From NCBI GenBank assembly GCA_035506195.1, contig DATJPV010000041.1:112-64111 (forward strand): 64,000 nt of DNA, in the 5' to 3' direction. The stretch is from Patescibacteria group bacterium. GTDB lineage: Bacteria > Omnitrophota > Gorgyraeia > Gygaellales > Profunditerraquicolaceae. Positions 40,401 to 64,000 of this stretch are shown here, one piece after another; within the stretch, counting starts at the first letter, position 1; each line of letters starts with the position of its first letter. The notes below the pieces were generated by a model that saw only the letters and a list, made by a program, of their open reading frames with translations, made no database searches and was not told where the DNA came from. Position numbers and translations under genes: made by a program.

Positions 40401-43400
40401 ACATTGAAATATTCGCTTTCATTCAACAAGTGGAAGAGGTTCTGATATACGATCAAAATTGCCAGAAAGTATATTTTCAATTCTTTGTCCCTTTCGGGAT
40501 TACCCAAGAGCGTCTTGACGGAGGTATTTTCGTTCAATGCGGCCTTTGCTTCCCAGAGGTACCCTGCGTGGCTGGCGCCCACAAAGTCGGCCATGAACGG
40601 CTGGCTTTGTCGTATGCCTTGCATGATCTCTATGAATGTATCCGCGCCCATGCGAAAGATCCTGTAGAATGCCTGCGTGAACCCGAAAAAGTCATCCCGG
40701 AAAATCCCGCGTAGCTGCGCTTCGCCGATGACCTGCACCAGCCGGCTGAAGACCGCCGGGCTCTCCTGTTCCATGGTTTTGACGAAATGCTCAAACCAAA
40801 AATCGCAGTCCTGCCGGGCTTCTTGCCCGAAAATGCGGATCAGTTGCTCGCGTACGCCTGAAACCGGCGAGCTGGCCTCTGACCGGCGGCCTATATTTGT
40901 TAGCGCTGCGATAGCATCGAAAAAGGGCTCTATCTGGCTGCCATCCGCCAAGAATTGCTTACGGAACAGGTACGGGATGCCAGCCACAGCTGCGTACTCG
41001 TCGATTATCTCTTGGAATGAGGCGGTAATCAGGATGACGGGGATTACGGCAGATTGCACGACCGAGCGGATCCAGCAGGCTAACATAACGCCGTCTCCGA
41101 CCCTCATGTTGAAATCGGTCACCACCAGGTCGAACGGCGTGCCGTTATCTTGGGCCTGCTTGTACATCTGGAAGGCTGGCTGGGCATCTTCGGCTTCGGC
41201 AATTTCGACCCGCTCAATATGAAACTTCACAGGCAACAGCGCAAGTTGGCTGCGTAGTTTTTCTCCCTGGGCCGGATCGTCATCGGCAATAAGTACCCGC
41301 AGGACCCGGGACGGCTCTTCTGCCGGGGAACTGGAACCCGTCTGCGACAAGGATACCCGAACCCGCTCTACCTCTGCCGGGGAAAACCTCCAATTCGCCG
41401 CAACAAACGCCCGGGATTTTATCCCTCGCATCAATCCCTCGCTTGCCCAAGAGCGTACCGTTGCCGGATCCTTGCGCAGGATCTGAGCTGCCCTTTCCGT
41501 AGACAGCCACGTTGACGTATATTTCTTCAAGGTAGCCAGGCCTTTTGCGATGCGCACAAGATCCAGGATATGGATAGCCCTGCCCTCTCTGCCGGTAAAA
41601 CCGAACAGGCTCGGTTGCACAAGATCCGTGCTACGCCCTCCCGCCTCATCGTTGCTCTTGCCAAAAATCTCCTCCACCCATTCTGCGCCGACCAATTGGT
41701 CCAGGTGCTGGGCATAATAATAAAATTCTCCCCTGCTCATCGCTAGCGCGGCCTGCTTAAGCTGGCGGTGGGCCTGGCTTAACGGAACCAAGCATGCTTC
41801 CCGGCGATAGGTTTGTCGTAGCGCCTCTAAAGAAACAAACCATATTCCCCCCACTTTCAGGGCCTGCCATTCCTGGCGGATCTCGGGCTGCTCTAGAAGC
41901 TTGCGGGCCGTATCCTGCGTTATGCCGAGTATCCTGGTCGCCTCTTTCGCAGAAACATAATTCAAAAGTTTATATACCGAAGCGTAGGGGATTTGATACC
42001 GCAAAGGCCTGCCTTGATAACGCTGGCCTACGGGTACTGCCTGGATAAAACCCTGGGCGATGAGTTCTTTTATTTTGTCTGCGCTGCGATGTGTTATTAT
42101 CCTTACCTCTTCCAGAGGATACTCTGCTTTTTCCTGCGGCGGATGCCTTAAGGCAAGTTCATGCGCTGCCAGATACAGGTAAAGATCCTGCCCTGTAAAG
42201 GTGCCTTGCACAATGCCGCGCAGGAGATTCTTCTTTATTACCTTGCCGTCCTGGCCGCACACGAAAATACTAAAATCCTTTTCGAACGTCAACCGCTTGG
42301 GAAGAGGCTGGCCGGTAACGGATACTGCCTCAGAAAGAACAGATGCCCCGGGCCGAGGAGGCAACGACTCGATCGGGAAGTGATAGACCTTGCGGTCTTC
42401 ATGAAACCATATCCTGGCTACAAAACGTTTTCTGGAATATATGATACCGACAACCCTGCCGATGCCGTAGTCGTTATGCACGACTGACGCGCAGCCCCAC
42501 AGATTCTTTAAGAGATCCAGCTTTTTCTCATGCGCAGGCAATGCGTCTGCGGCTTTTGGGGCAGGCTGACGGGTCGGCGAGCTGGCGAAAGAGCCGTCTG
42601 AGGCGTACGCCTCCCATGCCGTGCGGACAATATCATAACCGATCCTGTCGCATTTTAATACGGCGTTACATAACCGGTCCCAGCCGGTTTCCTTTAGGAG
42701 CCCACGCTGCTGCAAATGCCAGGCCATGCCAAGGTCGCCATGATTGGGCCGGCTCCACACAAGACGGCTGGCAAGCGGATGTTCAATGACGGCAAAACAA
42801 AGCAATGCCGTAGCTACGCCCGCCCTCAGGTAGCCTGCCCTGACGCGAACCGAATCGATCTGCAACCTGTTTTTCTGCGGGTGCCATTGTATCGCCAGGT
42901 TCCCGAACCAGCTCTGCGTGTCGTTATCGGATACTGTTATATCCCAGACTGTCTTTTCAATTTGCTCTTCTTCCCGGAAAGAAACAACGTAACCTTGCCT
43001 GCAGACCCCGCGTAAGCGTCCTAGCGGCGGGGATAATAATGAGCGTACTGTTTCTTCGTGAAAAACCGGCGAGCTGGAACTGCGTGCGGCATTTGCGATC
43101 CAGATCCCCCGGATACAAAGAGAGGGTTTACCGTCTTTTTGGGTCACGATGGACTGGCTGTGGAACGTATACGGCGAGCTGTCGGTTGCACATTGTGAAA
43201 CGGGCATTACCGCCTGCGCCTTCACGATAATTGGCCTGAGGCGCAGCGTGAAATGGGGTGTCTGCGGAACAACCGGATTAAGGGCATGGTAGATGCCGGG
43301 GAAAAGCTCTCTGGAGAGGGTTTCGGCACGGGCGTGTGCTGCCTGGCGCTGAAATCCGGCGGCCAGACAAAGCAGCTCTGTGTTTAACCGAAAGGCGATC

Positions 43401-46400
43401 AATTCTAGATAGGGGGTTAGGTCATGCGCGAAGGCGCGTGCGAATCTTTCTGCAAGATCTTTAGAAGAGAAGAATACCTCTAGCGCTCTGTGCGGAATGA
43501 GGCGAGCAACAATGAAGCCTACGGGAGGGCCCCGGGCAAGCTCTTTTGAAATGAAGAAAAACTTCGCGCGGATACCGTCGGTTTTGATAATCGCCCCATT
43601 GAAAACCGTAAGCTCGGCGAATGCGCCGTATTCGATGAGCGCTTTGACCTCCCCTTGATACGTAGGATAATAATCGCCCACCCAGGCATAAGGCGATGCA
43701 TGCTGCAGGGGAGAGCTGCTCATCGGCACGCCGCTATTATCGAGATGCCCCTGCGCGGCGTTTTTACGCGCCACCATGCGCCAGCCCAAAAGGACGGCAC
43801 TTTCCTCGTCATAAAATTCAGCCGGCGGGACTTCGAAGTCAAAACCGTGGCGCCAAAAAAGGTCTTCCCACTCAGCGGATGTTTCAAAAAGGCAGGGCAG
43901 ATTCACCAGTTGTATTGAAAGCCCTTTCTTGAAATTATATATCTCCGTGGCCCGTGCCCAGGAATCCAGGGCTTCGGCATTGCTATCCTGATATCCCGCC
44001 TCCGCCATGATCCTGTCGAGCGTATCCAGGATCAGGCTTCCCAGGCCAAATACATCTGTCTGGACATAATCAAGGACCTCCAAGAGACGGTCCTGCTTGA
44101 GGCGCGACGACATGTCCCGCAGATATTCCATGGCACGCTCGAAAATACCCGTCCTGTCAATCTGCTGGATCAGATAAACAAAGTGCCTGGAGCGTTCCAG
44201 GATCGCCGATTCCGGATGATGGGCAACCAGCGCCATCCTACCGTGCGTATGCAAGAGGCGCGCTAACGCTTCCAGCGACCGGTCTGCCCTTGTGTATTCA
44301 AGCGCATATTGCGAGGTAACCACCTCAAACTTTCCGTTACGTCCTTTTAACCGCCTGGCTTCTTCGATAGACCCGCGATGGACAACAATACCGTCTGAGC
44401 CCGGGATGCGCTCAGCCCGGATAGCGGCTTGATCGATGCCGTGTAAAACGAAACGGGAAGATGCCTCCTTGGCAAGCCGTAATAGCCACAGGTTTCCGCA
44501 CCCCACATCAAGGATAGCTGCTTCAGGCATTACGCAAGCCAAATTAAGGAAAAACTGCGTCCAATGCTGCCGGTAAGGAGCCAGCGTCTTGACATCGGTC
44601 ATTGCGGCAATGGCGGTGTCAAATCCCAGGTCCCAGAACATGTCCCAATCGCATCCTTCCGAAAGGCGACTATCGAATCCCTGAATCGAAGAGCTGGACT
44701 GACGTTGCGACCTTATTTCTACGGACCTATCAATTAAGACAGGCGTTCCCTTCCAGCCCGGCAACCGCGTTACTTTTTCAAATGGCTGGCCATCGAGATA
44801 AATCTCAGCTCCTTCTTTGAGTCGTTTCGGATTTGCCGCCTCCGAACCATCAAGGAATTCCTGACGCATATGGGGTTGTACGCGCAGATAACTGTCGATC
44901 TTACCGCCAAGGGTGGTGAAATATCGCTCGAGGCTGTAAAGCTCATTGCCGGTATAGCGTATATGCAGGCGTTTTGCCGTCCGAACTAATCCCAGCATAT
45001 TGGCAGATTGATCTGCGCACATCTGTTCAGTTAATGCCGGGTGTACACTGCGCACGTGCCAGCTGAAATTACTGTCCTCGCCCTGCACGTAGTAGACCAC
45101 GCCCGTAGGATCGAAAAGCATGCGCGGTATTTTTACATTGTCAAATTGACGGTCATGCCGATTAACGAAATGATTGGGAGAGGCCTGTCCTTGGAAGGAA
45201 TCAGCAAGGAGCGCGGCGCGGCCATCAGCCATCAAGGCGCTGCACGGATGCAGTTTTGCCTGAAGATCCCTCCTGAGTTGTGTAGGCAACGTATCCATAA
45301 TGCGTTGCATGGTTGTATTAAATTCATGATCGCCTTCTCCCAAGACAGGTCTACGGATGATTAAATCAATCTTCGTTCCGAAAGTCTTCAGGAACCAGGC
45401 GATATTTTTCACGTACGCCTCAGTGCCGATGCGGCGAGCCCACTTGCTTGCAGTAACCAAAGACAGCCTTACAGGATTGTAATCTTTGCCCATCAAAATC
45501 GGCGCGCCGGCCCAGAAGCGCGGGTCTTGGGCCATCTGGAGAGCCGCACGCGCAGAAGGAGTATGAAGTTCAACGCCCGCGGTAAATACCTGGAAATACC
45601 CTTCGAATAATGAGGCAACATCATAGAAATCCTTATCGTAAACAGGGTCGTAGTAATCCTTCAGCGGGTCGCTATCGAAATAGAGCCACAGGTATTGTAT
45701 CTGGCCGCTGCGGCGTAGTGTATTGACTACCCGGGCGATCTCAACTACCCACGGCCAGGGCATATACCGCACGAGTCCGGCCGCAGCAAGATGACAGATA
45801 TCGCAACGTATGGAACAGCCTTGCGTAACGTTAACCACAAGATGATATACATACTCATCCCTGAACAAGCTCGCTATACGCTTAAGATCGTCTATCCCCT
45901 CAAAATAAGGCCTGAACCAGTCATAGGGAGGATTCCTGAGAGTGCACAAGATTTGTCTTAATGAGGAAGAATCCATGTCGCGTCTTTCCAGCGCTGCCTT
46001 AAAAGCCTGTATATCTGCGGCCCCCTGCTTACTTAAGGGACAAGGGTATTGATCAAACAAAGCCAGATGCCGAGAAATCTCCTTGCGCCAAAAGCTGGCT
46101 GTAACCGGAGAGCTGGTCAACTGTGCAATGAGTTTCTCCGAGCGCCGGTATCCTACGCCGCTCCTATAGAGTTGGCGCAGAATGAGGTAGTACAGCTGCG
46201 GCACAAATGATGGGTGTTCGTTGGCTGCGGTTGCGATACGCTTGAAAAACGCCCGATAGGGATGAGGCGCATAAAACATCTCTGCCTGTTTGGCCTGATG
46301 ACGGCCTAAGGGATCAAAGTGCCACAACCTGCTTAATTGATCCATATCCTTCTGGCCGTTATGCTGCCGGATAAATTCCAATATGTCCAACGGTGCCAGT

Positions 46401-49400
46401 GCCTGGAATACCAACACCTCCCAGAAGAAGGGCCGGCCCGTTGAGAGGAGATTTAAATACAGAATGTTGGCAAGGTTATCCTGCCCGCTTATCACGGTCG
46501 GCAGATCATCGCAATAGAGGAATAACTCATTGAACAGCTTACGGGGAACGGAATAATCCAAAATAATGGTCACGTTATTATCCCGGCAGATGCGCCGGCA
46601 TTGCAGGTCTCCTTTGTCATTCGCATACTCGAAGAAGCTGTAGTCGTGCCCCCGGGAGAGATCCGAGACGGTTCGGTGTACTTCTGTATCGCGACGGCCG
46701 CACATAACAAAGAACGTGGACCTTTGTGTGCGAAAGTCAGGATGCAATGCCCGGGCCTGTTCAAATACGGCAAAGTAATCGCGCACGCTCTGGGCGGTAT
46801 GACAATAGAGAAACCCCCATTCCGAATCAACGACGTGCTGTATATCATTACCCTGATCCAAGAGCTCCCAACCGGGGAACTTTTTAATGATCCTGGCGCG
46901 TGCGACACGGATCTTTTCATCAACCCTGGGATATTTCTGAGAGTACAACTCTTGGCTGACCGGAGAAACAGGGGGCATCCCGATCTCCTCGTCCCCGAAA
47001 CCCAAATATGCTTCGCCGGCTGAGAGTGGATTAAGCGTAGGGCTTTTGAAGCCCAATTCGTAAATATGTACCTGCGCTTTTGCGTTGCCGCCATAAAGCC
47101 TCAGGGCCGTGCAATCAATGTCTTTTTCTTCGGCCCCCAACGCATACACAATTGAAACATCGTTCTGGCCAATGATCTCTTGCTGCGCGCGATACCATGC
47201 CCTGTTTTGCACATCGAACAACACCTCCTCGCTCTTTCCAAAACGTTCCTCGCTGTACAATGCGGTATTGATAACGCGTATACCCTCTGCGCTTTGCATT
47301 GCAGCCTGCGGATTGATACCCTTGAGGAGTTTTGTCTCGGAGACAAGTTGGATATCTTCCGGCGTATGGAAAATTAAGCGTATTTCTTTATCCGGAAATA
47401 AACGGCGCATTGCCTGAGCCGTATTAACGACAAATACAAAATCGCCCAACCCTGCCATCCGATGATGAAGGATAACATTTACCGCAGCAAAGTCATGCGG
47501 CTGCAGTAGCAGATGAGGATAATCTCTGCTTACGGCCCTGATCGCCTCGCTAAGATCCCATCCCATGCGTTTCGTAATGACACGCAGTATATTAGTGAGG
47601 CGGGCGGAATGAAACGGAATGGACAGCTCCAGCCCGTCAGCGCCGATATTCACACCATACGACCGGGAAGGGATAACGGATATCTTACGGAGGGCTGCGA
47701 CGTCTTTGTGGCGCAGGAGAATATTGACTGCGGTAAGGATTTCATAGTAAGGCAGGAGGCGCCGCGCGCCCTGTTCGATATTGCTGGCAAAATCAGCAGA
47801 TACGGGAATCTGGATTACCGGCATCTCCTCAAGCGGCGAGCTGGCGGCATCATCGAGCAGCTGGAGTTCTGCTTCCACTCCGAATTGCCGCTGGAGCTCG
47901 TCTTTGATCGCCTGGGGCGTTTTTCGTTTCGTTTCTGCAGAGACCCTGTACTCCTCATATTCCGTCATATCAATGACTTCTGCCGTATTTTCATCTACCC
48001 TATACCACACGATTCCCCTCCTCGATAGGATGAAATAACGCTGCCCGCAAGAAGACTGCAAATCGGTAAATGACGGTAAGAAATAGGAGAGGATGCCGTG
48101 CCGGTCAGGGTAATGCGTATGCCCGATAAAAACAAAACCGTTGTTAAATGTCTTGAAAGCCGTTTCTTCGTCCTCTATCCGAAGCTTGTATTCAAAAGGA
48201 GCGGACCTGCCTTGAGCGATCGAAATTTCTTTTGTGCACGAAAGCAGAATAGCATGTAAAGATACGCATTGAAAGATGTCAGCTTCAAGCTGAATGATAA
48301 TCTCTTTGCCTTTGTGCGCGTTATATACAAATTGTTTTAAGCGGGATTCGACAGTGGCATCCGCCGGCGAGCTGGCCCAGTCATAGCCAATTTGAGTAAT
48401 GCGAAGAGTTTTATATGGCTTCCATCCTACCGAGACAAAAGCATAGGTCCGCGGTGCCTGCAATGCATAGGTGTCATCACGATAGGTTTCCCACCCCCCC
48501 CATGTGGATAGTTTCTTGTGTTCCAATTCCAATACGTATCCGTTCTCATCGACGAGCACCGAGGCTTCCAGGCGCCTATCGTCAGAATCGCACTCAGTAA
48601 CAACCAAGACGTGGAAAGAAACAGAAGCGCTGACGAGGGCCACGTTAAAGCGCAATGTAACCGTTGAGGCATTAAAGCCGCGGAATGGCGCCAGCCTGAA
48701 TCCTCTGGGGGTTTTGTTGATATGCAATAAGTGCCGCGCGTGATCCCGCCTTACCATTTCCTTTATGTACTCCTCCGACGAACCTAAGTGTATCTGGCTG
48801 CCAGCGGTCTCGTCCGTGAATAGATGGAAAGGCGGAGACGCCAGGCGAGAACCCCCTTCTTCGGCGCGGCCATTCGACAACGGCGAGCTAGACTCTTGCG
48901 GCACAGCCCAGGCTATTGCTACCAATTCCGAAGGCACTGTTATAAAACCAAAAGCATTCAAGCCTCCGAAGCGCCCCGATATAACATCAGGCTGCTTAAA
49001 TCCGCCATGCTCAAAATAGTGCCTGACCAGATCAATGCGTTCCTGGAAAGAACTATCTTTCCAGATACGGGTTGTTTTGAGAAGATAGCTGTGCTCGCTG
49101 AAAACTACTACAAAGACGCCTTGCGGCTGAAGGAGCCGGTTGGCCTCCTTGAACACATCGAACGGGTACTTGAGGTATGCGATACCGGAGACCATCACGA
49201 CGGCACCAAAGCTATTGTCGTAGAAAGGTAAGTGCGGCGATACATTAACATCATGGACTATCCGACTGGTAAGCCGCGAGTTCGCGCGCATCTCTTCCTT
49301 GCTTACGCCCAGGCCGACTACCGCCGAGACTCGCGGCTTTCTAGGCACATACGAATGGTACCCCGACATTAAATCAAGGACGCGGCTGGCGGGAGGCACC

Positions 49401-52400
49401 AGCGAGCGTAGTTGCCTATAAACGAAACGGGCGGCATCCCTGGGCAAGTATCTCTGGATCCCTCCTCCCATCTCCCGCCAAAATTCCGTATCGGGTGCGG
49501 AATTCGGCGTATCAAAAGACCCCTGCGGGAATAAAAGCGGGTTCTGTGCCGAGATGTCGGATGCGCCTAACAGCCTGGACTGTTTGTACAATAACCGCAG
49601 GCCGGCCTCGACAATCCGCGTCGTGCGTTTACCTACGATAAGTACGGTTTTATCGTCGGTTATTAAATCCAACAGCAGGCTGTCGTTATCGGAATCTTTT
49701 TCGGTCATCAGAATGGCCGGCAAGCCACGGTCGATCCTGCGGGCTTCCTCGATCAGTTTTATCCCGCATACCCCCCCGGGCATAATGAGGTCCGTTATTA
49801 AAAGCGCGATTTCATTATTCTTAATAATCTCGAGGCCTTCATGGGATGCCTGCGCATGGTACATACATTTAAACCCTAGATCGCTAAAAGCCCGATGCAA
49901 TGCTTCGTGATACCATGGCCGGTCATCGACGATGAGGATGCCCGCATTCTGAATAGCTTCATCTGCTATCGGCGAGCTGCCGACAAAGGTGCCCAAGAGA
50001 TTAAGCATCCTCGTATATCTGTGGCGGCCAAGCGTACCCCAGTCAATGCTCGGCTGGTATCCGGCGTGAAGCAGGCAGCGACCGAAAGGCGTTTCCGGAA
50101 GCACTGTTTCCAGTTCGCGTTGGAACGTCTCGTAACGGCCGAAACCTGCATGAGCGGCCATAGCCCTGAAAGGAACTGTCTGAAATTGCCGGTACCTCCC
50201 GCTGTAGGCAGCCAGATCATCCCACCGGGGAGAATCCAACATATCCGCTAAACGTTCGTTAATGGTCCGTATGGTCACGGGGTTTTGTACGTCTTTCATG
50301 CGCAGCTGCACCGCATCTTTGGCTACCCGGGAAACGATTTTAAGAAGGCAGGTGAATATCCCCATGCCGGTGAGGTTGACAGGAAATGCCCTATCGATAT
50401 AGATGCTGTTTACATATACCGAATCCCAGGAAAGCATGATCCGGCCGCTGCGAGAAAACAGCCAGCTGGCCGCAATGGGCGCCTGGCTTATTCTTTGCAA
50501 GAGGCAACCGCGATCAGGTTCAAGGTTGATGGTAAACGACTTTCCGGAAGGCTGGATTTTCGAATACATATCCACGCCTGCCTGCCTTACTCTAAAAGTA
50601 TGCGCATCGATGGATACGCGATGCTCGCATACCTTAAGTTCAATAAGATCATCCGAAAGATGCGTGATGCCGATCGGCCAGTTACCCCCTGCGGAATCAT
50701 AGTCAGCGTTGATGGTGCCTGTCCGGATATTGATCCTATGGATTCGTCCGTTAACCATGAACGGCAACAGATCGTCTCCGTTTTTGTGTCCAACCGCCAT
50801 AAAGATATCTTGTCCGGGGCGCAGCCATGTCATCACGTGCTGATGGCCGAGTGCATTTTCTACGTCCATGGCTATCGTCAGCATCCTGTCTTGCCGGGAT
50901 TGCTGAACCGGCGAGCTGACAACGGCATCCCCGGCGGACGGCGCATGCGCGTCTACATAACCAAGGAACGCCTCAAAATCCTTCCAGATCGTCAAGCGCA
51001 CCGTTGCGCAAGTGACGGAATTACGTGCCAACAGGCTCATGCGCGTGCTATCTTCGTCCAGAGAAATAATCTCACCCGTACTTTCCAGCAATCTGGTGCG
51101 GTAAATATCCGCAACCGCAGGAGAGAACCGGGCTAACGACTGGATTGAATAAACCGGGCCCCCTAGCGGGATATGCAACTCATAATTGTTTTGATAGCGG
51201 TTCATCTCCTTGAGCAGGCGTTCTACCTGCCTGCGCAAACAGCCGAGGAAATAGCCGCCGACCAGGATAAATATCCTCTCCGGATAATTGATGATCTGAT
51301 GGTCCACAAAGTTACCGTATACATGCCCGCGATGAACCAGATAAGAATCCAGGAATACTACTTCATGAATGCGGGAGACCGCAGGAGCAGTCATCAATCT
51401 TTCGATGGAAGGCTTAGCGTGTATGCTGGGCCCGAATATTTCGCTGGCGTGGACGACCAGTAAAGCAAAACCCTTATTCGGGGCAAGCGACGAACTGGCA
51501 AATGGCGATGCGTCTGATGTTGCTGCGTATGAGGAGCCATACCAGGCTGCCCCGATGGTCGTAATGATCCAGCGGTTGTTTAATGGCCGCAGCGTCCTGC
51601 CGCTTATTTTCTGTAGCATTACAGACCCAAGCCAGCCCTGGTGCGTATTGACGAACGCATTGAGAATAAATTGGCTGTGCATTGCCGGAGAATAGTCAAG
51701 GCGCGACCTTTTGCTATATGCGGAACGGGCGAAATGTACCGCAACCGGCAGAAGACCTTTCTGCCTATACGCATTAACAATGCCCTGCATCTTGGCGAGC
51801 ATGGCCGAACGAGTAGGATCGGGGCTGCCTTCTCCCGAGAAGTAATCCGCACAATAAGTCAATACCGTGTTCGGCCGACTTGGCTGAACAGACGAAGCAT
51901 CCTGCGTTACCGAATCGATGGTATTGCCGGTTTCCGGGAATGGCTTTAGCGGCAAACACACCCAAATTATCTCTCCCGCAAGACGACGCTGCAGTTTAAT
52001 GACGCGCCCCCAATTCTTGATAAGCAGCGGTTCTTGCCCTTCCGGAGCGAGTTCATAGCGTTCGTCATCCGGATGGAAATCATGCGTAACGATAGTCACA
52101 TCCTGACCAGGCAATCCCAGCTTGGCTACAAAATCGACAACTTCGTCATGATCGACGGACTCCAGGGCAGCAATGACGCGACCAGCATTGGTGATATAGC
52201 CGGCAATAGTAATATACGAAACATCCTCGCGGATTGTGTGCTTATCTGCGCCGGGGACCTGTTCTACCAAATCAAAACCACTGAAGAGCCAGTTCTTGCC
52301 ATTTTCCTCGATCCATATATAGGGGATCCCGTCTTGAAATCTAAAGTGGAAAATCCGACCGCCGGTGAGCTCAACGATATGGTTGCCGACTTTCTTCGCA

Positions 52401-55400
52401 GGGTTCCTCCAGGCGATCGTCACCCTTGAAAGCTGAGCCAGCGGGTCGTATTCGAAATCGATACGCGTAATGGCTGCCTTCTTGCCAATGAAAGCGATCT
52501 GCCGCACAACCTGTTCGTTATCGCGCGCCTCCCCTGCCTTGCCCTCTTCTCTTATCTGCATCAGCTCATGCGTTGTTTTTCCGGTCACCTGCATGCCTTC
52601 TGCCGGCGAACTGGACTGGCCTTCTTTTTTCTTCGTGAGCAATCCGATGGTCAGGGCTATTGTTGCCGCCCCCAAGAACAAAGGAAGGACCCAGGAATGA
52701 CTATCCTGCTGCACCATCCTCCTATCCCGGCTTGGCATTTGGCCTCTAAGGTGATAACGATTGTCGCCAAGATAAGATGCTTTCGGATTAAATAAGCTGC
52801 TTCTTCTCCATGCCCGTGCCGCAAATGCATTGGCAGTGGTGCTTTCAATGCGCCAGCCGGCAAATTGGCCAAACTCCGGATGTGTTGCCATCCAGTAGTA
52901 TAGAAGAGGCATGACCCGCTTGTGTTGGTACGCTTCTTCTACAAGGGCAACGTCTCTTAAGAGCTTGCGCTGCTGTTGATCGACGGCTAAAGAAAACCCG
53001 CCGACTATTTCTCCGTCATAATCACGCAGGAGCTCAATCCAATACCCGATGATTCGATCATCGTAGCCTTTGACTGCCCGATCGCGCGGCCAGACCCCCC
53101 TGATTGCTAAGACCTGGCTTACGATGTCATGAATCGCATCGTTCGGTAAACGAACAAGCTTACGTAACCCCTGGTCGATTACCTGCTTCTGTGCACTAGA
53201 TAGCTGCATAATCAACTCTACAGGCTCAATCACCGCCGGTGAGCTGGAAGCCTCATTGTCCAGTGCTTCCTGCTGGATCCGGATTGCTTGATACGCAAGC
53301 TCTAATTCTGAAACAGGCCGTTCGCGCAATCCGGCTTCATGGCGCAGCCTGTCGCGTATGGCCTGGTTATCGCGGAACAGCCTTCCTAACCATGCTCCGT
53401 GCAGGCGCTGGCTTTGAACGTCGGCACCGATAAAGAGCTGTTGTGCGGTTACGCGCAACTTAGGGGCATGCACGTACTCCTGAGCCTGTAAAGCCTCCCG
53501 GGAAATACGCCTCAATACAGAGCTATGGTTTTTTAAATTGATATCCCATATATGCCACTCATCTTCAGCCGTCCTGAACATAACATCGATATCAGAATCA
53601 AGGGTAAGAAAACCGTTAAAACTGCCTATCAGCCAGATCTGTCCGGCATGCAAGATCTGCCTTATTCTTTCTCCGGGCCCGACTTCCCCGAGGCGCATCA
53701 ATGCCGATTCAATTTGACCTTGGCGCAGCGTTGGTGTCTCTAATACTTTGAATATCTTCCTGAGTAGGCGCCGGTCAATAAAAGGAGTCGCGAAATAGTT
53801 TTCCAGGGATAGCTGTAATGCATGTTGCCAGTAGGGCGTTTCCGGGCCCGTCATGTGCATCAAAGCCGCAATCTCTTTGGCAACAGCTGCGGGGGTAACG
53901 ATCCCGGCCTTACGCTGATTGTCAATCCATACCGCCAGTTCAAAAAGATCCCTTTCTCCTTCTTTGATGGCCATCTGTAACATGCGCGCGGATTCCTGCG
54001 CCGGAGAGCTAGCCTGGCGACGCCGGTCCTTTGTTGCGGATCGGACGGACATATAAAACGCTTCGTGCCTGGCAGCAAGGAGCTCATACGTATATTGCCC
54101 CATAATGAACCTTCTGCCCTTTTGGCCCATCCGGATCCTCAATTCCCTATTCGCGCAGAGTTCCTCAATGCGCGCCGCAAAACCATTGATATCGCCTGCC
54201 TTGACAAGGAACCCGGTCTCGCCCGGTATCATTGCGGCCGCGATGCCGCCCGCATCAAAAGCAACCACCGGCTTTTCCATCGCCTGCGCTTCCAGGAGCG
54301 CCCTGCCCAGGCCTTCGCTCGTACTGCATAGCACCGATACATCGGAAGCGGCAATGTAGTCTCTAATCTCTTGCTGCGAAAGCCCGCCGGTAAAAATAAC
54401 GTTGTCGTCCAAGCGGCATTCCTTGACAAAAACGACTACCCTTTCCTTAAACACCGGGTCGTAATCGTTACCCGCAAAAATAACCTGTACCGGCCTGCTA
54501 CGGTCTCTGAGGATACGCGCTATCTTAAGCAGGTCAAGGTGGTTTTTCTCGGGGCTGATACGCCCTGACAAAAGCACTACCGGTGTATCGAAATGTACGC
54601 CGGCATCCCGGGCTTTTTTAGGATCAAAGAACTCCGGATCGATGCCATTCCCGAGGTTCACAAACCGCCGACGCAGGTACCACGGCACACTCTTTTCGGA
54701 AATACCGCTGATGCCCGCCGCCCAATGCACGAGCATACGAGTGGCGATATCCCTTAATAATATGTTCCCGCCGTGATTCTCCAGAAGGACTGGAATGCCC
54801 CGCGCATAACTTTGGCGCATCAGGAGCGCTGCCTCCGGAAAGGCGATCGAATGCACCATGACCAGGTCAATACGGTGTTGTGCGAATATTTCGTTTAACC
54901 GAAGCTTGAAGGTGGCGATATCCAGATTAATGATGCCGCGGCTATAGAACCTTCTGATAAGAGGCAGGCGCTGCATCAAGCCCATGAATCTGGTGGTGAC
55001 GAGCCAGTAGCGAATGAGTCCTTTGACGCCTAACTGCTCGAAGAATCTATTGAGTATACTGAAGAAGTGGTTTTCCGCGCATTTTGTGCATTGCGCGATG
55101 CTATTGTCGTGCAAAAGGACCGGCACGCGGATCAAGGTGCCCTTACCGATCTGCTCGCTTCTCACAAAAGCGCCTGCCGCATCCGTGGTAAGATATAACT
55201 GAATAATGGTTACTCGGTTCCGCCTCAACAAGGCGGCGTTGAGCCCCTGTAAATGCTGTTGCAGGCCGCCAAGGTTATCGTAGGAATAAGAAAACCGCAG
55301 GATCGTCAGACCATCTAGGCGGCCTTCTGCCGGAGAGCTGCTCTGTGCGCGGCTCGCAAAGGCTGCATGTATCGCCTCCGTAAACCGGCGTCCCATCTCT

Positions 55401-58400
55401 TCGATACCGATACCGTCGGGGCTGATAACGATATCCGCCGGATGCGCAGGGTAATCGTTTCTTTCCAGGGGTGTGGCGAGCAGTTGGCGGGCTATGTCGA
55501 CGGCTATGCCGCTGGCTATCGCGCGTTCAAAACGGCTTTTATAGCTACTGTTGAAACGCACGAGTAATTCAGGCTGGCCTTTCTCCTGATCAGCATACTC
55601 AAACAGCTTAGTAACGCATTCAATGAATAGCACATGCGCTTCCGGCGCCTCGTTGTGTGCCCATTCAGCAAGAGACCTTGTGTCCACGCGCATAGAACGT
55701 AACCCGTGATCCTGCAGCGCCTTACTCGCCAGATTAATGAGCATTGTCTTGGCTGTTGCGGTCGGCCCAATAAAGACGATATGCGCCGGCCGGCCGAGTT
55801 GGCGCTGCTCATTGGCAGTAGCTATGCGCACGATCATGGAGGCGAGTTTCTCTATGCCGCTTTCCTGTACGGGCGAGCTGGTTTTACCGCGCTGCCACCC
55901 CGAGAAGGGAGAACGGACCAGGCGGGGGAAACGCGCTATAACCAGACGGCTGCCGAGCTTCGTATCTGGCTGTTGGGTTTCGGAATTATCTATCTTGAGG
56001 GGAGCATATATCTCATCGGCGATTTGGCGCACCCGATCGTTGACGCTATCGGTCACCAGGATCCCGGCATTCTTCAGCGCCTCGATATAGAATCCGATGA
56101 ACCTAGCCCTCACCAGATGGAGATACTCAAATAACACAACCTGAACCATTGTCTTTTTTGAGCCGGAGTCAGAAAGCAAAGATACCGCCTCCTGAAGCAT
56201 GGCGATGCGCGCTTCCCGCAGATAATTGCTCGCCTGCATATGGAATGCGTGACGGGAAAAATCCTTTCCGTCAAAACGATCTGCCTTCGCAAGTGCCTCC
56301 AGATTAAGTTCATCCAGAGACATGCATATGTTTTGGAATTGCGATGCCAAAACAGGAACAAGCACAAAGGCGCGTTCGAAAGCACGGCGAGCCGGCCTTC
56401 TTAAGAGCGCCTCTATTGCCTTTGCGGGTTGAGGATAGGTATATCGCGTATCCGCGTCAGCGCGCTGATGAGCAACAGCAGGACGAATACCTTGCCGGCG
56501 AAAACTTATTTCTTCGAGTTCATGGAATACGAGCGGATCAAGATGGCGGCGGAGCGCGGATGAGAATTCTTCCTGGAAGCTTTCAACGAGGGTCTTTGAA
56601 GAGAAGTATAACGATAGGGTGCCGTTTGTTTTCCGAGCCCAGATGAATGTTGGCGGAGCGCGTGCGGTATTCTGCGTAAGATAAAAGAATCCGACCTTGA
56701 CATCGCCAAAACTTGGAACCGCCCGGTTGAAGGCAGGGACGGCTTCATAACAACCCTTGGCAATGAGTTGTTTTATCTCCTTGATATCCTGTCGGTTCAG
56801 GTTCCCGAGATAGCCATGCCCTTGAGAAACGGGGCTGGCAGCCCTCATGGGGCCTACTCCGTCCCGCGAAGGCTGCTTGACCCGGACCACAAAACGCTCA
56901 ATTAATCTATCGCTCAATAAACGCATGGGATCATTTGAAATATACGAAGGCAACGCAAAATCTCCGCCGCCATCTTGATCAATCGGAGATCTGCCTAATG
57001 CGTCTTGACGCCTTTCGAAAAAACGCGGCAAGCCGTAATGGGTCGGGACAAACTCTGCCGGGTGGAGATAGACATGTGCATCCTTAAACTTTGAGCACAC
57101 GTTACCGTAACTGCCTACGATACCGAAGTGCGTCATCTTCCCGGAAGCATCAAAATACACCACAAGAGAACCTGGCTGTGCTTTTTCTTGCGAGACAACC
57201 TGGAATGACATTGATAATATATCAAGCAGTTGCTGGTAGCCCAATCCGTTGAGCTCAGGGAAGAATTGTTTCACGTACCCCAGACAATCCATGCATGAGG
57301 GCAGGTCCTTGGTATCTTCAATAAGCATTATTCCCGGCAACACCGCAATGCTGTCGAAATCATGCTGTTCCAAGAGCCAATCGATGCATTCACGGATCTC
57401 TTCAACCGTATCGAATAGCGGAGAGCTTGTCCCCGGAAGGCGGCGTACGGTATAGATAAGCGTACCTTTGTTAATATCGTCGGCCTGTTCGCTGAAATTT
57501 CCTACGGCAGTATAACTCAGGCGCTTGCCTAACGAAGAAATATGGAAAATGCCACGGTCATTGTACACAGCCGCATTACGCGAATACGGCAATCCTATTC
57601 CTCCCCAGAAACGTGCGATTCCTTTCCTTGTTGAATATCCTTTGGTCATTGCCTTGCGCAGATCCTTAATACCCTTGCCTAGATCGCGCACCAATATCTC
57701 AAGGAACCCTGCATCGGCAGAAAGCACCACCGCGCCGGGCGCACCGGCATGCACTACGATATTAGTAGCAAGTTCATCAACTATAAAACGGATCGACTCG
57801 TCACCAGAAACAAGCTCATCCTCCCTGTCGTTTACGATTGATTCCTGCGCAAAGCCCAACGATGCGGCAAATGCCTTGATGTGCCGTCCGTATACGCTTT
57901 CCGGGGCAAATTCGTATTGATCGCTGCCTACCGGCAAAAGCAGGAATCCGCCGGAGGCAAACGGCGTGAATCCCTCCCTGCCTGTACGCGCAAGCAACGA
58001 ATCCACCTTCCTGACCACGTGCCCTTCTAGCTCGGGATACTCTGGAAGCGGAGAGCTGGAATACTGTTGAGACGCATTAAACAGCAAAACAATATTCTCT
58101 CCTTCTTTGAATTTTGTGACTCGCAGGCTAAACCGCGTATCCGGCGGATATGCCTGTCCGATACTTTCAACGAGGAAATCCTGCATAAGTGCAGTGGATT
58201 CCCCACGGCCAAGCGCGGTATCCAAAATGACCTCATATTTCATGTCTGGGCCGGGTTTATCCGCCAGTTCATACGGACGCAAGGGAACGTCGTATTGGAG
58301 GCGTGTAAGGTTGCCCCGGCGGATCAACCCTTCGATCCATACATAGAGTTCCTGGAAAGACAAACCGGTGATATCGAAATACCTATCGCCCCTGGCCGGG

Positions 58401-61400
58401 GAACTTGCGCCGTTCAAGGCTGCAATTGCCTGATACGTCGCGCCTCCAACACGGTATGCGGCCACAACGGTTTTAGATCCATGCTCGCTGAATTCTTTGG
58501 CATCGTTTTTAGCGGCAGCCGGATACTTTATGGAACTATACCCACCCAGGATTGCCGGGAATGCCCCTGAAAGAACGTGTTTTCTGAGCGTATCATGAAC
58601 CGGATAATACGGGCCAACATTCGCCAGCCTGATTGACGGCTCGGATATCCAGCGTTGGCGAATATGGGCAAACGCCGGATCGCACCATGCATGCAAGTCA
58701 CAATGCAGAAGGGAAAATCTATTCTCAGCCGGCACGGGAGGATACAGCCATTCGCTTCTTTGAAGAACTTCGCCCGGGCCATATCCTGCCTCGCGCAAGA
58801 CTTGCGCTGCGGCATAGAGAAGTTCGTCCTTACCGTCAATGCCAATGAGCCGCTTGATCCCCAGCCGGAATGCCACGAGCGCCAAGTCTCCTCTACCTGT
58901 GCCGTATTCCTCCGCGGTCATGCGGTACAGATCCTGTTGGCGCATTAAGGCTATAATCGGAACAAGGTATTCCAGGAACATAAGCGGCGCTTTCACGACA
59001 AGCCCCTGAGCCTGAGCCACCAGCCCCCAAGGCATGCTTTGGCGCAAAAGGTCAGCCAGGATGATAACATCATCTACCCTCAGGTACATATTGTTGGCTC
59101 CCGCAACTACTGCCAGATGCTTCTGTGGCGCATCAATCTCTACGGTATCTTGCCTTAAGGACGCAAAAAGTACCTTGCGGATATAATGTTCCAGCTGTTC
59201 TATGGCCCCCTCGGCAGGTTCCTCAACCGGCGAACTGGAAAATCGCGAACCTGGCCGCGGGCCGCCCGAATCCCTGAGTTTACCGGGGGTCAAGACGCGC
59301 ACTATTGTCTCCTGTAATCCTGCGATATACTCAATAGAAGTTGCAGGCCCTAATCCAATCCCTATTACTATATATTCGGCCAAGAGGCGGATAAGCTCAA
59401 TGACATCCGTATCGGGATTTGAAAGCATATCGGAATCAGTGACAAACACATCGAATATCATTACCGGCCCTTTATCGGAAAGGATGATATTCCGGGGGTT
59501 ATAGTCTAGACCGCGCAGATCCTCTATGCGTTCGTATAGGAAGGCGCATACATCATAAATAGTCGTCACGCTTCGTAATAGAGTGGGAATAAGGGCACTT
59601 TGATTAATGAGGGCGCGCCCTTCGGTATACTGCGCCGCCATGTCTCTGATGTATTGATACAGATTCCTGCCTTCGACAAACTTCCATATGAGAATAAGGT
59701 TTCCGATCCTGTCCTGCGTATAAAATCCCTCTACCACGCCCGGCGTTCTGGGCGTAAGCCCGTTAACCGCATCGACAACCTTCTTTATCGCATCGATGTC
59801 TCTGACGTCAGGGCGCCGGGCCATCTCTTGGGTTATTATCTTTATAGCTACCACGTCTGAAGGCTGATTGACTGCGTGCGCTTTCCAGGTATTGGCTGCA
59901 AGTTTTTCATCAAGTATGTAGGTAGCTCCCTCTGGCAGATAGCGCCTCTGTTTAGGCAGGATAACTTTCTGGCCGGGCTTGAAAGCCGGGAAGAGAGAAA
60001 ATGCAGTAAACGATGCGAGGGCTTCGGTGAGGTCCTGGAACACTTTTTCCGGATTCTGCTGGCCGTTTATTTTTATGGTAACCGCTTTGTAATAATCGAA
60101 TACCGCCTGTTCATATTCGCGATATTGCCGGATACGCGTGCGTATCGTGTCAGCATCGTCATCCCCCCTTCCTTCCCTGGGGTGGCCGACGAGCCTGCGC
60201 ATCGACTCCTTGTCGCTGATGTGCAGTTCGATAGCACAATCAATATAAATACCCTGTTCTGTCATATAACGGGCCGATGAGACGGTAGGCGGGTATCTAT
60301 CGAGGATAAACCCTGTCTGCATATCCTTTCGGCTGAGGTAAACCTGCATTATCTTGTCCATAATATCGTCGGGCACAAGCCTGCCGTCCAAGACGCGTTC
60401 TTGAATCACCGCTAGCTCCTCGCCGGTTAAATGGTAGGCTTGCGCTTTAGCGGGGTCGTGCAGGATATCGCGCAGGACCTGCCCCGCAGAAATGTGCGGT
60501 ATGCCTAACAACCGCGCCAGCCTGTCTGCCTGCGTATGTTTTCCGCTCCCCGGCTTACCTTTTATTACGATCCTTCTGGGCATATCTGCGGTGTCTATGG
60601 CTGAGCTGGCATCGAGTTCCGGATATCGCACGAAATATGCGTCTTCCTCCGGGCCGAAGGGAACGAATCCCAATCCCGCATAGAATTCTTCCAGCGCTTG
60701 TTGCCCTTGCGGGTGGCGCCCGAAATAAACAAGATGCGCGAGGATTGTTTCGGTAGCGCCATAGGTCCTTACAAATCTTTCTACGAGAAAATGGCCGTAG
60801 CCTTTTCCTTTGGAAAGGCGGTCTGTTTCAACAAAATCGATGAACTTGAAATCACCCAGATCTTGGCGCCTATCCGAATAACTTAATAACAGGCTGACCG
60901 CGGAATCATTTTCTGCTATATAGTAAAGTTCGTACGAGCGATGGTAACCGCGCAGAGAATAGTCGCCAAAGACCCGGTCTTTGCCGTTCTTCCACTTGTT
61001 TAATAACGATAGCATCTCCTGACGATCGCGGACGACGTGCACGATGGGCACGCTGGTGCTTTCCGCAAGCTGCACTTCAATATCTTCAAGTTCTTCCCAT
61101 AAAGTCGTTGCATGTGCGGATAAAGACAGGGCTTGTGCCTGCCTGCTGAATAATCCTCGGTTAGGCCGCTTATGCCTGGTAGATTGCGTAAGGTCTTGGA
61201 AAATTTCCTTCATTTCGCGGACAAGCTGCGCCTGCCGATCAAGGTTTGCATCCAGCCAAGCCCCGATCACCTGTTGCCTCTTCAGTAGGTACTGCAAAAC
61301 AGAATCCGATTTTACCGGCGAACTGACGGCTGGCAATCGGGTGGAGATTCTATCGATAGGAGCCTTACTTTCCTCGATATCAACTCTAAATTGTGTAAAT

Positions 61401-64000
61401 CCACCCATCGAATGCCAAGTGCCATAGTGCTCGGATATGTATTTATTGCCTGACGTTATCTGCGCGTATTCTTCAATCGCAAGTGTTTTATTAGGATCGA
61501 AATTAGTCCCAAGCAATAATGAATAATCCATATCGATCGTAGTCGGATATATGAGTATGCGCCCACCCGAAGTTGAAACCCGCATTAGTTCTTTGAACGC
61601 CCTCTTCACGAGTTGCTTCCCAGAGATGCCTCCGGGAATACCGAACAACCAAGTCACGATAGTGTAATCAAAACTATTATCTGCATACGGAAGCCCCTCA
61701 TTGAGATCGGCAACCTGAGCGGTTATATCACCGGGATAAGGAATGGGGGAGGCGTCAAGCCGAACATATCGTTGCAATGTCTTAGCCATCCGGTGAAGAA
61801 GCTGTACCCAAGGATCCCCCATCTCCAACACATATCGCAACCATTTCTTCCCGCCGTAGAGTAATTGCGCCTTCAACCAGGCCACAGTAGCTGGATTAAT
61901 ATCTACTATGCTAATGCTGGGTGGCGGGTTCATTAACTTAAAAGGCTCTTGCTGCATCAAAGAGTATTGTAAGCTTTGTGCGGCAGGAATAATCAGTAGG
62001 CGGCGGCTCGCATAAAGAGGCTCACTGACTGGCAGGGATTTCTCATATTCTCGCCAATTAGTAAAAACTGGCCTTAGGGTATTTTCCCCAAATGCGGCAT
62101 AATCAAGTAGATTATTTTGCGATACATCAAGGGAAATGATCTCTTTTTCTTCGGGTGTCAAAAGATTTTTCACCGGCGAGCTAACAGAGGGAACGGTATC
62201 TTGAATATGCTGCAAAAATGCCTTAAGCCCCCGATGGCTGGCCTCTTCCTCTAGTGCCGCCAACGGATTGATTACTTCATACATGCCTGTGCCGCGGCTG
62301 GCCACCCACTCCTGCTGAATATCCATCCGCTTGGCCCAGGCGGGCATTAGCTCCAGCGCATTCATTAACCGCAAACCGGGAAAACCGAATACGGGGGTTA
62401 CCCTGTCATTGCGCATGCCTAAACCTTCGTGGGGCTCAAGCATATAGCGTGTCCCGATCCTGGCCGCAAGGGGGATGATATTACGGCTGACCAAATACGC
62501 AGCAATCAGCACCTTGATCCCGTTGGTATTCTCAGTTGCCGTGCGGTGCGAGAAGGGGTTACTTAAAAGAATGGTTCTGGCGATGTCATTCGCATATGAT
62601 ACATTACGCTGAAAGACATAATCGGCCTTTTTGCCGCGCATGACATTGCCGACCACGGTGCGCATCCGGGATATATCAAAGAAATTAACGTAATCCGCCG
62701 TCATCAATAACCCATCACCATTAAGGTGGCGAGAATCCGATGCCGGGACGTATACGGCGTGCAAGGCGTTGCCGCACGCAAAATACTTATTATTGGCAAC
62801 GTCCACAACATGCGGGTTTCCATCAAAACCATAAAAGCGGACCTTCCAGTCCTGCCACGGCTCACTCAGTTCGATAAGGACTTTGTAAAAACTCTGCACC
62901 ACCATGATTGCTTCCAGAGGATTCTCGCCTAACCCGAATCCCGCAAAGACCATCGTGCGATTCCCATGGCCTGGCTCATTTCTTGCGCGGATGATTCTCT
63001 TAAAATCTGCCTCCATAAGCTGCCTCTGGAACCTATCTTCGCAGTCATCGGTGAAATTAAGATCAGCGGTGTAATCCGCATGCCGGTCTACAATATAATT
63101 CACCAGGCGGAATAAGTCCTCGCCGGTAAATCCGATAGTTTGTAACTCGGGCAACAAGGGGACGATTGCTTCCAAGACGCCCTTCCTTAATTGCTCCAGC
63201 TCCGCCTCCATCGGCGAGCTGGCGCGCCCGTACGATTCGTCTTCCAGGGGCAGATAACTGACTTCTGCGCCTAACTTTGCTATGAGAATTTTTATCTTTT
63301 CATCTTGGAATACGTGCGATAGCATGATTTTTATGTGCGGATTGGCAACGACAAAAATTACCCTTGCGAAATGAAGGACTTCTTTGAGCTCGATATAGCG
63401 CTCCAATTTAGCGCTTATCTCCTTCAATATTTTCTGCTTAACCTCAACGCCGAACCAACTTTTAGTTTCGACGATACACAGGCGGCCCTGCGTATCTGCA
63501 ACTAGGGCATCGAATTGCGTCGCTTCGCTACCGGCCGATATGACCCTATAACCTAGATGCTGCAGGAATTCCAGTGCCCTAAATTCGTTCCATAAACAAA
63601 ACAGGTCGCTGAACGCCCCCTTAGGATGAACCCGGGCAAGCACGTTAGCCGGCAACTCGACTCCCAATCTTTGCATCTTTAGCCATGAAGGGACGATTTT
63701 TTCCAGGAACCTTGCTTCCATAAATGCAGCCCACTGCTGCTCTATCCTCGCGAAGTCTTTTGGAGGGATATCCTCCAATGATCTTCCTGTCTGAAGGCAT
63801 CTGTCTGCGTATTCGAATACCGGCCTGATTATATCGAACCCGGCTTCCCCGAGACCCTTAAGAAGATTGTAATGAATATACATGGAATTCCTGCCTGCGT
63901 GAATCAATGCAAAACCCATCGTAAAGACATCATTGGCTTCTCTCAAAAGAACGACTAATCTGCGCTGTTGTAGGGTGGGCCTACCGGAAGAAAAGAGCAC
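34427..64000 (-). CDS. Giant multi-enzyme modular protein (at least 9,857 aa; the N-terminus lies beyond window position 64000) of about 30 unrelated catalytic or regulatory modules joined by Ser-Ser-Pro junctions
   Basis: The minus-strand frame is uninterrupted for the whole 29.6 kb. In 55% GC DNA a stop would be expected about every 20-25 codons. Recognisable enzyme motifs occur throughout (see sub-features). The stop codon TAA is read at about 34428-34430 by my count, whereas the track gives 34427. Confidence 0.85.
   Translation of the reverse strand: [9857 protein letters not shown]
36471..37214 (-). other. Giant-ORF module: class I SAM methyltransferase
   Basis: It has [15 protein letters not shown] (motif I) and VVGVDVG. 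Confidence 0.5.
37227..38215 (-). other. Giant-ORF module: HD-domain phosphohydrolase resembling the (p)ppGpp hydrolase domain of RelA/SpoT
   Basis: [12 protein letters not shown] (the His of HD motif I) and [12 protein letters not shown] (HD motif) are present at about 37745-37780. The spacing matches the SpoT HD domain. Confidence 0.55.
40874..41323 (-). other. Giant-ORF module: stand-alone response-regulator receiver (REC) domain
   Basis: It has [18 protein letters not shown]...[15 protein letters not shown]...IPVILITAS. Confidence 0.6.
43727..46105 (-). other. Giant-ORF module: radical SAM domain followed by a class I SAM methyltransferase
   Basis: The CX3CX2C motif is [16 protein letters not shown], encoded at about 45790-45815. 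The downstream methyltransferase has [13 protein letters not shown] (motif I) and [11 protein letters not shown]. Confidence 0.65.
46115..47833 (-). other. Giant-ORF module: GT9-like (heptosyltransferase-type GT-B) glycosyltransferase
   Basis: [38 protein letters not shown] resembles the WaaC/WaaF N-terminal motif (irlsalGD...P...lr..fP.a.i). Confidence 0.45.
47843..48364 (-). other. Giant-ORF module: metallophosphoesterase-like
   Basis: It has [10 protein letters not shown], with a GHxH-like motif V. Support is weak. Confidence 0.35.
48890..49969 (-). other. Giant-ORF module: response-regulator receiver (REC) domain followed by a class I SAM methyltransferase
   Basis: The REC part is [25 protein letters not shown]...[21 protein letters not shown]...AILMTEK. 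The methyltransferase part is [12 protein letters not shown] and [14 protein letters not shown]. Confidence 0.6.
53246..54001 (-). other. Giant-ORF module: Pol-beta-like nucleotidyltransferase
   Basis: It has [21 protein letters not shown] (G-S ... D-x-D). Confidence 0.45.
54011..55329 (-). other. Giant-ORF module: GT4 (GT-B fold, retaining) glycosyltransferase
   Basis: [13 protein letters not shown] is present, and the EX7E region is [24 protein letters not shown]. Confidence 0.7.
55342..55870 (-). other. Giant-ORF module: P-loop NTPase
   Basis: Walker A is [13 protein letters not shown]. A hhhhE-like Walker B is HVLFIEC. Confidence 0.45.
57428..58048 (-). other. Giant-ORF module: GHKL/HATPase_c-type ATPase (anti-sigma-factor / histidine-kinase-like)
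   Basis: It has an N-box-like segment [14 protein letters not shown], a G1 segment [11 protein letters not shown] and a G2 segment RFWGGIGL. Confidence 0.45.
59237..61316 (-). other. Giant-ORF module: GNAT acetyltransferase, adenylate kinase and protein-kinase-like domains in one junction-bounded segment
   Basis: The GNAT motif A is [17 protein letters not shown]. The adenylate kinase motifs are [35 protein letters not shown] (about 60541-60600). The kinase-like motifs are VAIKII (about 59830-59860), DYNPRNIIL and MIFDVFV. Confidence 0.6.
61326..62174 (-). other. Giant-ORF module: class I SAM-dependent methyltransferase (Methyltransf_11-like)
   Basis: The motif I-like region is [11 protein letters not shown]. 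The post-II motif is [14 protein letters not shown] (LPF-D-SFD). Confidence 0.5.

Follow-up and report, generated by a model that had tools for sequence, protein, structure and literature searches.

The 64,000-nt stretch of Omnitrophota DNA analysed here (contig DATJPV010000041.1 of assembly GCA_035506195.1, positions 112 to 64,111; hereafter the window) contains a giant open reading frame (ORF), and we somewhat favor the reading that the region at 59237-61316 within it is one cargo unit of an Omnitrophota giant protein, a chain of protein-sized units joined in frame by an invariant tripeptide, Ser-Ser-Pro (SSP). This unit would consist, in order, of a helical region at the N-terminus, a GNAT acetyltransferase and a short-lid nucleoside monophosphate (NMP)/adenylate kinase (ADK), both of them divergent, and an atypical protein-kinase-like domain. 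The domains would most likely act as separate soluble cytoplasmic enzymes using nucleotides or acyl-CoA, whether still part of the giant protein or once released at the junctions. A cytoplasmic location would be expected, since no convincing transmembrane segment was found in or near the unit and its enzymes would use ATP and acetyl-CoA. The original prediction, made from the DNA letters and their translations, had described a junction-bounded fusion of these three domains. All of the motifs that it quoted can be found on the minus strand, in the reading frame of the giant ORF, and the architecture of GNAT-like, ADK, and kinase-like domains in one SSP-bounded unit proves essentially right.

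The giant ORF extends for at least 9,857 amino acids without a stop codon, and its N-terminus lies beyond the window. Residue i of the ORF begins at nucleotide 64000-3(i-1). In this numbering, 59237-61316 corresponds to residues 896-1588 and falls exactly between in-frame SSP sites at 893-895 and 1589-1591, with no SSP found inside it. The unit (residues 896-1591; 696 amino acids, approximately 77 kDa) is the second largest in the ORF, in which the median unit length is approximately 255 amino acids. The ORF and the features of the unit are as follows.

34427..64000, minus strand: giant ORF with 33 units and 32 SSP junctions (ORF continuity, Pfam domains)
61316..61324, minus strand: upstream junction SSP, residues 893-895, AGT TCG CCG (in-frame SSP)
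61049..61315, minus strand: putative helical N-terminal region of approximately 90 amino acids, residues 896-984 (low-confidence helix prediction)
60617..61048, minus strand: likely GNAT-like acetyltransferase domain, residues ~985-1128 (PDB 2dxq, PHROGs)
60593..60610, minus strand: A-S-S-A-I-D, residues 1131-1136, possible fossil junction (junction-like, without Pro)
60011..60583, minus strand: ADK (NMP kinase, short-lid) domain, residues 1140-1330 (Pfam, NCBIfam, PDB 1p4s)
59291..59920, minus strand: probable atypical protein-kinase-like domain, residues ~1361-1570 (PDB ULK3, PADLOC PD-T4-6, mad6)
59228..59236, minus strand: downstream junction SSP, residues 1589-1591, AGT TCG CCG (in-frame SSP)

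The tripeptide SSP occurs 32 times in the giant ORF, where 1.9 occurrences are expected, and does not appear in any of the window's 24 remaining ORFs (10,667 amino acids). The junctions share the nucleotide consensus NCC-AGY-TCG-CCG-GYN, with small residues at position -1 and V, A, L, M, or I at position +1, and no sites of intermediate score were found. They are spaced 35-799 amino acids apart, and all Pfam domains lie within units, none spanning a junction. The first Ser is encoded by AGY in 31 of 32 cases, the second by TCG in 20 of 32 (p=2.5e-8), and the Pro by CCG in 29 of 32 (p=8e-9), while the -1 codon is GCC or TCC (p=0.0015 and 4e-4, respectively) and Val at +1 is encoded by GTT in seven of 11 cases (p=0.007). 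The string AG[CT]TC.CCG is found in 28 in-frame copies within the ORF, with four other copies on the same strand and two on the other strand. At the nucleotide level, synonymous sites included, conservation of the junction goes beyond what the amino acid sequence requires. One SSP, at residue 6941, is flanked atypically, by D at -1 and Y at +1, and could be among the approximately two expected by chance; together with the SSP at residue 6976 it delimits a 35-amino-acid mini-unit, M20 (43067-43171, minus strand).

The nature of the units is illustrated by M09 (54002-55330, minus strand), a 443-amino-acid GT4/GT1 glycosyltransferase that aligns from residues 3-5 to residues 431-440 with stand-alone metagenomic glycosyltransferases of 427-460 amino acids (33-40% identity). 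This end-to-end match to stand-alone genes indicates that the units are whole proteins, and that the SSP junctions occupy the place of a stop codon, an intergenic gap, and a start codon. The closest relatives of M09 are all stand-alone, and no other SSP-junction giant was found among 160 loci. The sole paralogous pairs among the 33 units are M07/M19 (residues 2385-2523 and 6765-6901) and M21/M25 (residues 6979-7142 and 8349-8495). Each pair is 30-32% identical, M21 and M25 are GNAT-like, and the remaining units are mutually unrelated.

The junction bounding the unit is, in our opinion, its most interesting aspect and deserves follow-up. We tentatively suggest that SSP junctions are the unit boundaries of Omnitrophota giants, serving either as cut sites of a polyprotein or as nucleotide-level joints at which genes have been spliced in frame, a proposal that we hold as possible rather than probable. 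A protease site alone would not explain the conservation of synonymous sites and serine codons, and to our knowledge synonymous-site conservation is not expected of a site that serves only as a protease recognition sequence. The frozen AGY and TCN serine codon classes would point instead to common descent under strict selection for Ser, or to a function at the level of nucleic acid. If the polyprotein reading is true, cuts at SSP would release a GNAT-ADK-kinase enzyme of approximately 77 kDa. Other explanations of the junction were considered and rejected: a synthetic cloning scar, as the junction varies at synonymous sites and its flanks are natural and syntenic; an intein; and 2A-like skipping, as there is no conserved upstream peptide. 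A weak match to a papain-like NlpC/P60 peptidase (Pfam E=0.11) lies at 57119-57301 on the minus strand, in residues 2234-2294 of unit M07 (MDCLGYV ... THFGIV).

Post-translational cleavage has been proposed for Omnitrophota giants, with the cleavage points stated to be unknown, and the lack of known cleavage points has made it impossible to cut these proteins in silico (West-Roberts et al. 2023, bioRxiv 10.1101/2023.11.21.568195). Should the junction prove to mark sites of processing or assembly, giants of 10,000-147,000 amino acids could be cut in silico for the study of structure and function, and the question of whether they work whole or in pieces would become testable by proteomics.

Comparison with known genomes places the host of the giant ORF in the Omnitrophota. 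The ribonucleotide reductase encoded in the window is 76-80% identical to those of Candidatus Omnitrophota metagenome-assembled genomes (MAGs), and most of the flanking genes tested are collinear with Omnitrophota MAG loci; for the seven nearest genes, identity is 59-80%. Giant genes are a known trait of the Omnitrophota. The "Archaeovorin" giants carry glycosyltransferases, methyltransferases, GNATs, and HATPase_c domains (West-Roberts et al. 2023), and giants of the "multi-enzyme metabolic cluster" kind have the same Pfam repertoire, 80% of them being sequence singletons (Nielsen & Lui 2026, bioRxiv 10.64898/2026.06.07.730766). The Pfam content of the present ORF (GT4/GT1, several methyltransferases, HATPase_c, two Response_reg, HTH_17, GNAT, and ADK) matches this repertoire, which argues that the ORF belongs to the described class. 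In common with the published giants, it has an Omnitrophota host, a single ORF of approximately 10,000 amino acids or more, a mosaic of divergent GT1, methyltransferase (Methyltransf_11), GNAT, HATPase_c, and response-regulator domains, and a largely unique sequence without close homologs. It differs in that ADK (PF00406), the GNAT-ADK-kinase unit, and SSP or any inter-unit motif are absent from both papers, and in that no C39 or S8 peptidase or SecA and few transmembrane helices are found in the visible 9,857 amino acids, the N-terminal part lying outside the window. The unit is an unusual case within a class already on record, not a new kind of system, and what it adds is the combination of a GNAT, a divergent ADK, and an atypical kinase, which neither paper mentions. 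Only two or three candidate hydrophobic segments occur in the visible part of the ORF. The last unit (34430-35113, minus strand) opens directly after the final SSP with VSFIATVVMATALCM, a hydrophobic stretch that could be a membrane anchor or a signal-like segment, and the C-terminal end of the ORF reads ...KPAKKKSP.

Other systems offer partial parallels. In the bifunctional AAC(6')-Ie/APH(2'')-Ia enzymes, a GNAT is fused to a kinase-fold phosphotransferase, and the two domains act on small molecules with acetyl-CoA and ATP/GTP. The likeness to the present unit lies in the pairing of a GNAT with a protein-kinase fold on a single chain and is an analogy only: no sequence similarity was detected, an ADK lies between the two domains here, and in its N-lobe the kinase-like domain is closer to Hanks-type kinases than to APH. 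MARTX toxins (PMC3153235, PMC6315884), polyvalent proteins, which belong to phages and conjugative elements (PMC5512222), and viral polyproteins likewise carry many unrelated enzymatic units per polypeptide, and the short motif that recurs between units points to a site-specific peptidase that would release them, as in processed multi-effector proteins. In contrast to these, the giant ORF has no RTX repeats, CPD domain, or phage or plasmid context, and conservation of its junction extends to synonymous sites.

The adenylate-kinase identity of the central domain is certain by sequence comparison. Pfam PF00406 matches it with 92.7 bits (cut-off 26.8, E=3e-26) over profile positions 2-148 of 151, and the alignment to Mycobacterium tuberculosis ADK (PDB 1p4s) is full-length and collinear (E=1.6e-22). 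The P-loop, G1148-T1156, reads GKPGSGKHT (K1154) and aligns to GPPGAGKGT of 1p4s, and ISAGQVLR (R1177) aligns to ISTGELFR, with the NMP-site arginine (R36 in Escherichia coli) present. The equivalents of R156 and R167 (E. coli numbering) are also kept. The domain thus shares with the M. tuberculosis enzyme and PF00406 the P-loop, the NMP-binding segment, the core, and a short lid with a GR-DD motif, and differs in being embedded in a giant protein. The P-loop named in the original prediction stands, but what was labeled there as the lid, GIPHISAGQVLRD, corresponds to the NMP-binding segment, and the true lid is GHPREGRGDDD (residues 1272-1282). The domain falls below the cut-offs of all 21 NCBIfam adk models (e.g., NF001381 and TIGR01351), the best of them giving 117.8 bits where 187 are required, and its sequence marks it as a specialized, divergent paralog rather than a housekeeping adk. 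The statement that ADK is normally a stand-alone enzyme holds for bacterial housekeeping adk; in other settings ADK fusions are common, the best 150 matches to the unit being mostly multi-domain.

The best single-domain relative of the ADK among the best 150 of 9,769 matches is P0016, a stand-alone metagenomic protein of 582 amino acids (ENA metagenome contig, 125-1873; 38% identity, 146 bits), which has an N-terminal hydrophobic segment and an ADK domain. The motifs HxSAG and LDR[FY]PP are common to P0016 and the ADK of the window. As DR[YF]PP and SAG recur in this otherwise unrelated protein, they would mark a conserved ADK subfamily rather than decay, and the comparison suggests a distinct subfamily with a relocated arginine (DR[YF]PP). 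The C-terminal part of P0016 was compared with the kinase-like domain and found to be unrelated to it.

The domains flanking the ADK are more divergent. Residues 985-1128 are likely to form a divergent GNAT acetyltransferase, with K1064-G-K-G-Y-G1069 as motif A. Their single best PDB match is the acetyltransferase 2dxq (E=0.048), in which RRGRGYG and AVHAFYESCGFV align in order with motif A (SKGKGYG) and motif B (ALEEFYAGLGFV) of the region, and their only PHROGs match is an acetyltransferase over the same segment (E=0.23). Residues 1361-1570 in turn have a good probability of adopting an atypical protein-kinase-like fold. K1387 (VAIK), D1499 and N1504 (LDYNPRN; D-x4-N), and D1517 (FDVF) occur in order with the right spacing. 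The best PDB match is ULK3 (E=0.09), whose alignment runs collinearly from beta1 as far as the catalytic loop and pairs VVAIK with VVAIK and LDYNPRNIILS with LDLKPQNILLS. Four PADLOC PD-T4-6 Ser/Thr-kinase models match the N-lobe (E=0.0012-0.0098), the N-terminal region of PD-T4-6 having a Ser/Thr kinase fold (PMC11514479), and the PADLOC mad6 model also matches the domain. For the N-terminal region of the unit (residues 896-984), no family match was obtained in Pfam or NCBIfam.

Several observations weigh against the reading of the region as a unit of separate, active enzymes. Neither the GNAT-like nor the kinase-like region has a Pfam or NCBIfam match even at E<=10. The check by domain hidden Markov models proposed in the original prediction thus confirms the ADK and, in these two collections, neither the kinase nor the GNAT, for which matches are sub-threshold but consistent; by that measure the kinase call is unsupported. 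AlphaFold predictions without an alignment gave a predicted local distance difference test (pLDDT) score of 34.6 for the whole unit and 34.0 for the kinase-like region. Homologs of either region were found in no collection (word-index searches, and the best 150 of 9,769 HMMER matches), and a profile comparison shows no similarity between the GNAT-like region and the other GNAT-like units of the ORF, M21 and M25. These points would favor a rival reading in which only the ADK is real and the "GNAT" and "kinase" motifs are chance resemblances in novel sequence. We regard this as distinctly improbable, given that the expected family comes out as the best or only family match in independent libraries, with the expected motifs aligned in the correct order: PDB and PHROGs for the GNAT, and ULK3 together with four PADLOC models, at E-values down to 0.0012, for the kinase.

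A second group of adverse observations concerns catalysis. In the ADK, GKGT of the P-loop is changed to GKHT. DGYPR is changed to DRYPP (D1234-P1238), which puts Pro1238 at the position of E. coli R88 and Arg1235 three residues earlier. The first lid arginine (E. coli R123) is His1273, with Arg1275 inside a three-residue insertion. With R88, a lid arginine, and the P-loop altered, the domain may be inactive or may act on a different substrate. The kinase-like domain lacks the glycine-rich loop GxGxxG, having LAANTWKAH at that position, and has no recognizable APE segment. The ADK-like and kinase-like domains could then be pseudoenzymes, that is, nucleotide-binding, structural, or regulatory modules without catalysis, as might befit giant proteins whose domains are reported to be highly divergent. 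This is unlikely in our view. All four core catalytic residues of the kinase (K1387, D1499, N1504, and D1517) are kept, as are the P-loop Lys, the D84 equivalent, and three of the five arginines of the ADK in place. Alternative arginines adjoin the two displaced ones, and the conservation of the DR[YF]PP variant in P0016 suggests constraint.

The remaining points of this kind concern release and origin. No processing protease was identified in the window beyond the weak NlpC/P60-like match, and the reading of the unit as a set of releasable enzymes leans on the GNAT and kinase folds, on catalytic competence, and on cleavage at SSP, all of which we infer. Finally, near-junction sites, which resemble the junction without matching it fully, occur in the ORF as often as chance predicts (10 observed and 10.2 expected).

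This last count bears on how the unit may have arisen. At the boundary between the GNAT-like domain and the ADK lies A-S-S-A-I-D, encoded by GCC AGC TCA GCC ATA GAC. The A-S-S-A site agrees with the junction in its Ala at -1, in both serine codon classes, and in its Ile at +1, and lacks only the Pro. Met1140, five residues after A1134, aligns to Met1 of stand-alone ADKs. The helical region with the GNAT and the ADK with the kinase-like domain were probably former neighbor units that merged after the junction between them lost its Pro (SSP to SSA). The sequence hints at such a merger of two units; with the near-junction class at chance frequency, the fossil junction is without statistical support and is a lead only. 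If SSP junctions are unit boundaries, the A-S-S-A site would show units fusing upon junction decay. Elsewhere in the ORF, on the minus strand, near-junctions that are each one nucleotide off the pattern are R-S-P (AGA TCT CCG) at residue 2337 (56984-56992), S-S-S (AGT TCG TCG) at residue 4169 (51488-51496), and S-S-S (AGC TCT TCG) at residue 6436 (44687-44695), inside three of the ORF's largest units, with 516, 565, and 799 amino acids, respectively. They may be decayed junctions, in a class that shows no enrichment over chance.

The GNAT-ADK-kinase triple fusion recurs in no public-collection protein at detectable similarity, and the question of whether it is found in other genomes is answered accordingly. 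Word-index homology searches with the whole unit, the kinase-like region, and units M04-M08 returned nothing, and no relative of the unit was found in 185,579 species genomes or in Joint Genome Institute (JGI) metagenomes. An exhaustive HMMER search with the unit gave 9,769 matches; in the best 150, the significantly matched stretches all lie at unit positions ~195-476, corresponding to the ADK. Most of these 150 proteins are multi-domain, mainly tandem-ADK proteins, with eukaryotic tandem-ADK proteins as top scorers. Searches of phages and plasmids by tblastn gave ADK or GT4 matches only.

The original prediction had interpreted the fusion as a means of local ATP/ADP regeneration, whereby the embedded ADK regenerates ATP from ADP for the kinase-like domain and other ATP-using units. 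The arrangement lends itself to this idea: a linker of approximately 30 amino acids joins the ADK directly to the kinase-like domain, other ATP users such as HATPase_c are encoded in the same ORF, and ciliary multi-ADK proteins such as AK9 score highest among the relatives retrieved by the exhaustive and PDB searches. The anchored adenylate kinases of eukaryotic flagella are a precedent for a tethered ADK. We nevertheless consider local regeneration very improbable. No direct evidence supports it, the ADK is divergent and below all equivalog cut-offs, with the arginine for the AMP phosphate (E. coli R88) replaced by Pro and another, in the lid, displaced, and the fusion recurs in no other sequence of the collections searched, so that there is no sign of selection for an ADK-kinase pairing. 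Omnitrophota cells are, moreover, described as ultra-small in one report (PMC10066038), in which case diffusion limits of the flagellum type should not apply. Taken as a whole, the observation behind the original prediction is partly confirmed and its interpretation partly supported, and the reading of the region as an SSP-bounded cargo unit of separate enzymes remains the one that we favor.

The rest of the window encodes the ribonucleotide reductase, mannoside-utilization enzymes, and LacI regulators; no tRNA or Rfam match was found in it. At 11613-13055 on the minus strand lies an ORF with a PilZ domain at its N-terminus and a ROK-family match at its C-terminus. The mannoside/cellobiose-type cluster around it contains two GH113 genes, a GH94, and a GH130, together with an ORF of 936 amino acids with phosphoglucosamine-mutase-like and mannose-6-phosphate-isomerase matches. 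This cluster is part of a region that shows partial synteny with Omnitrophota MAGs.

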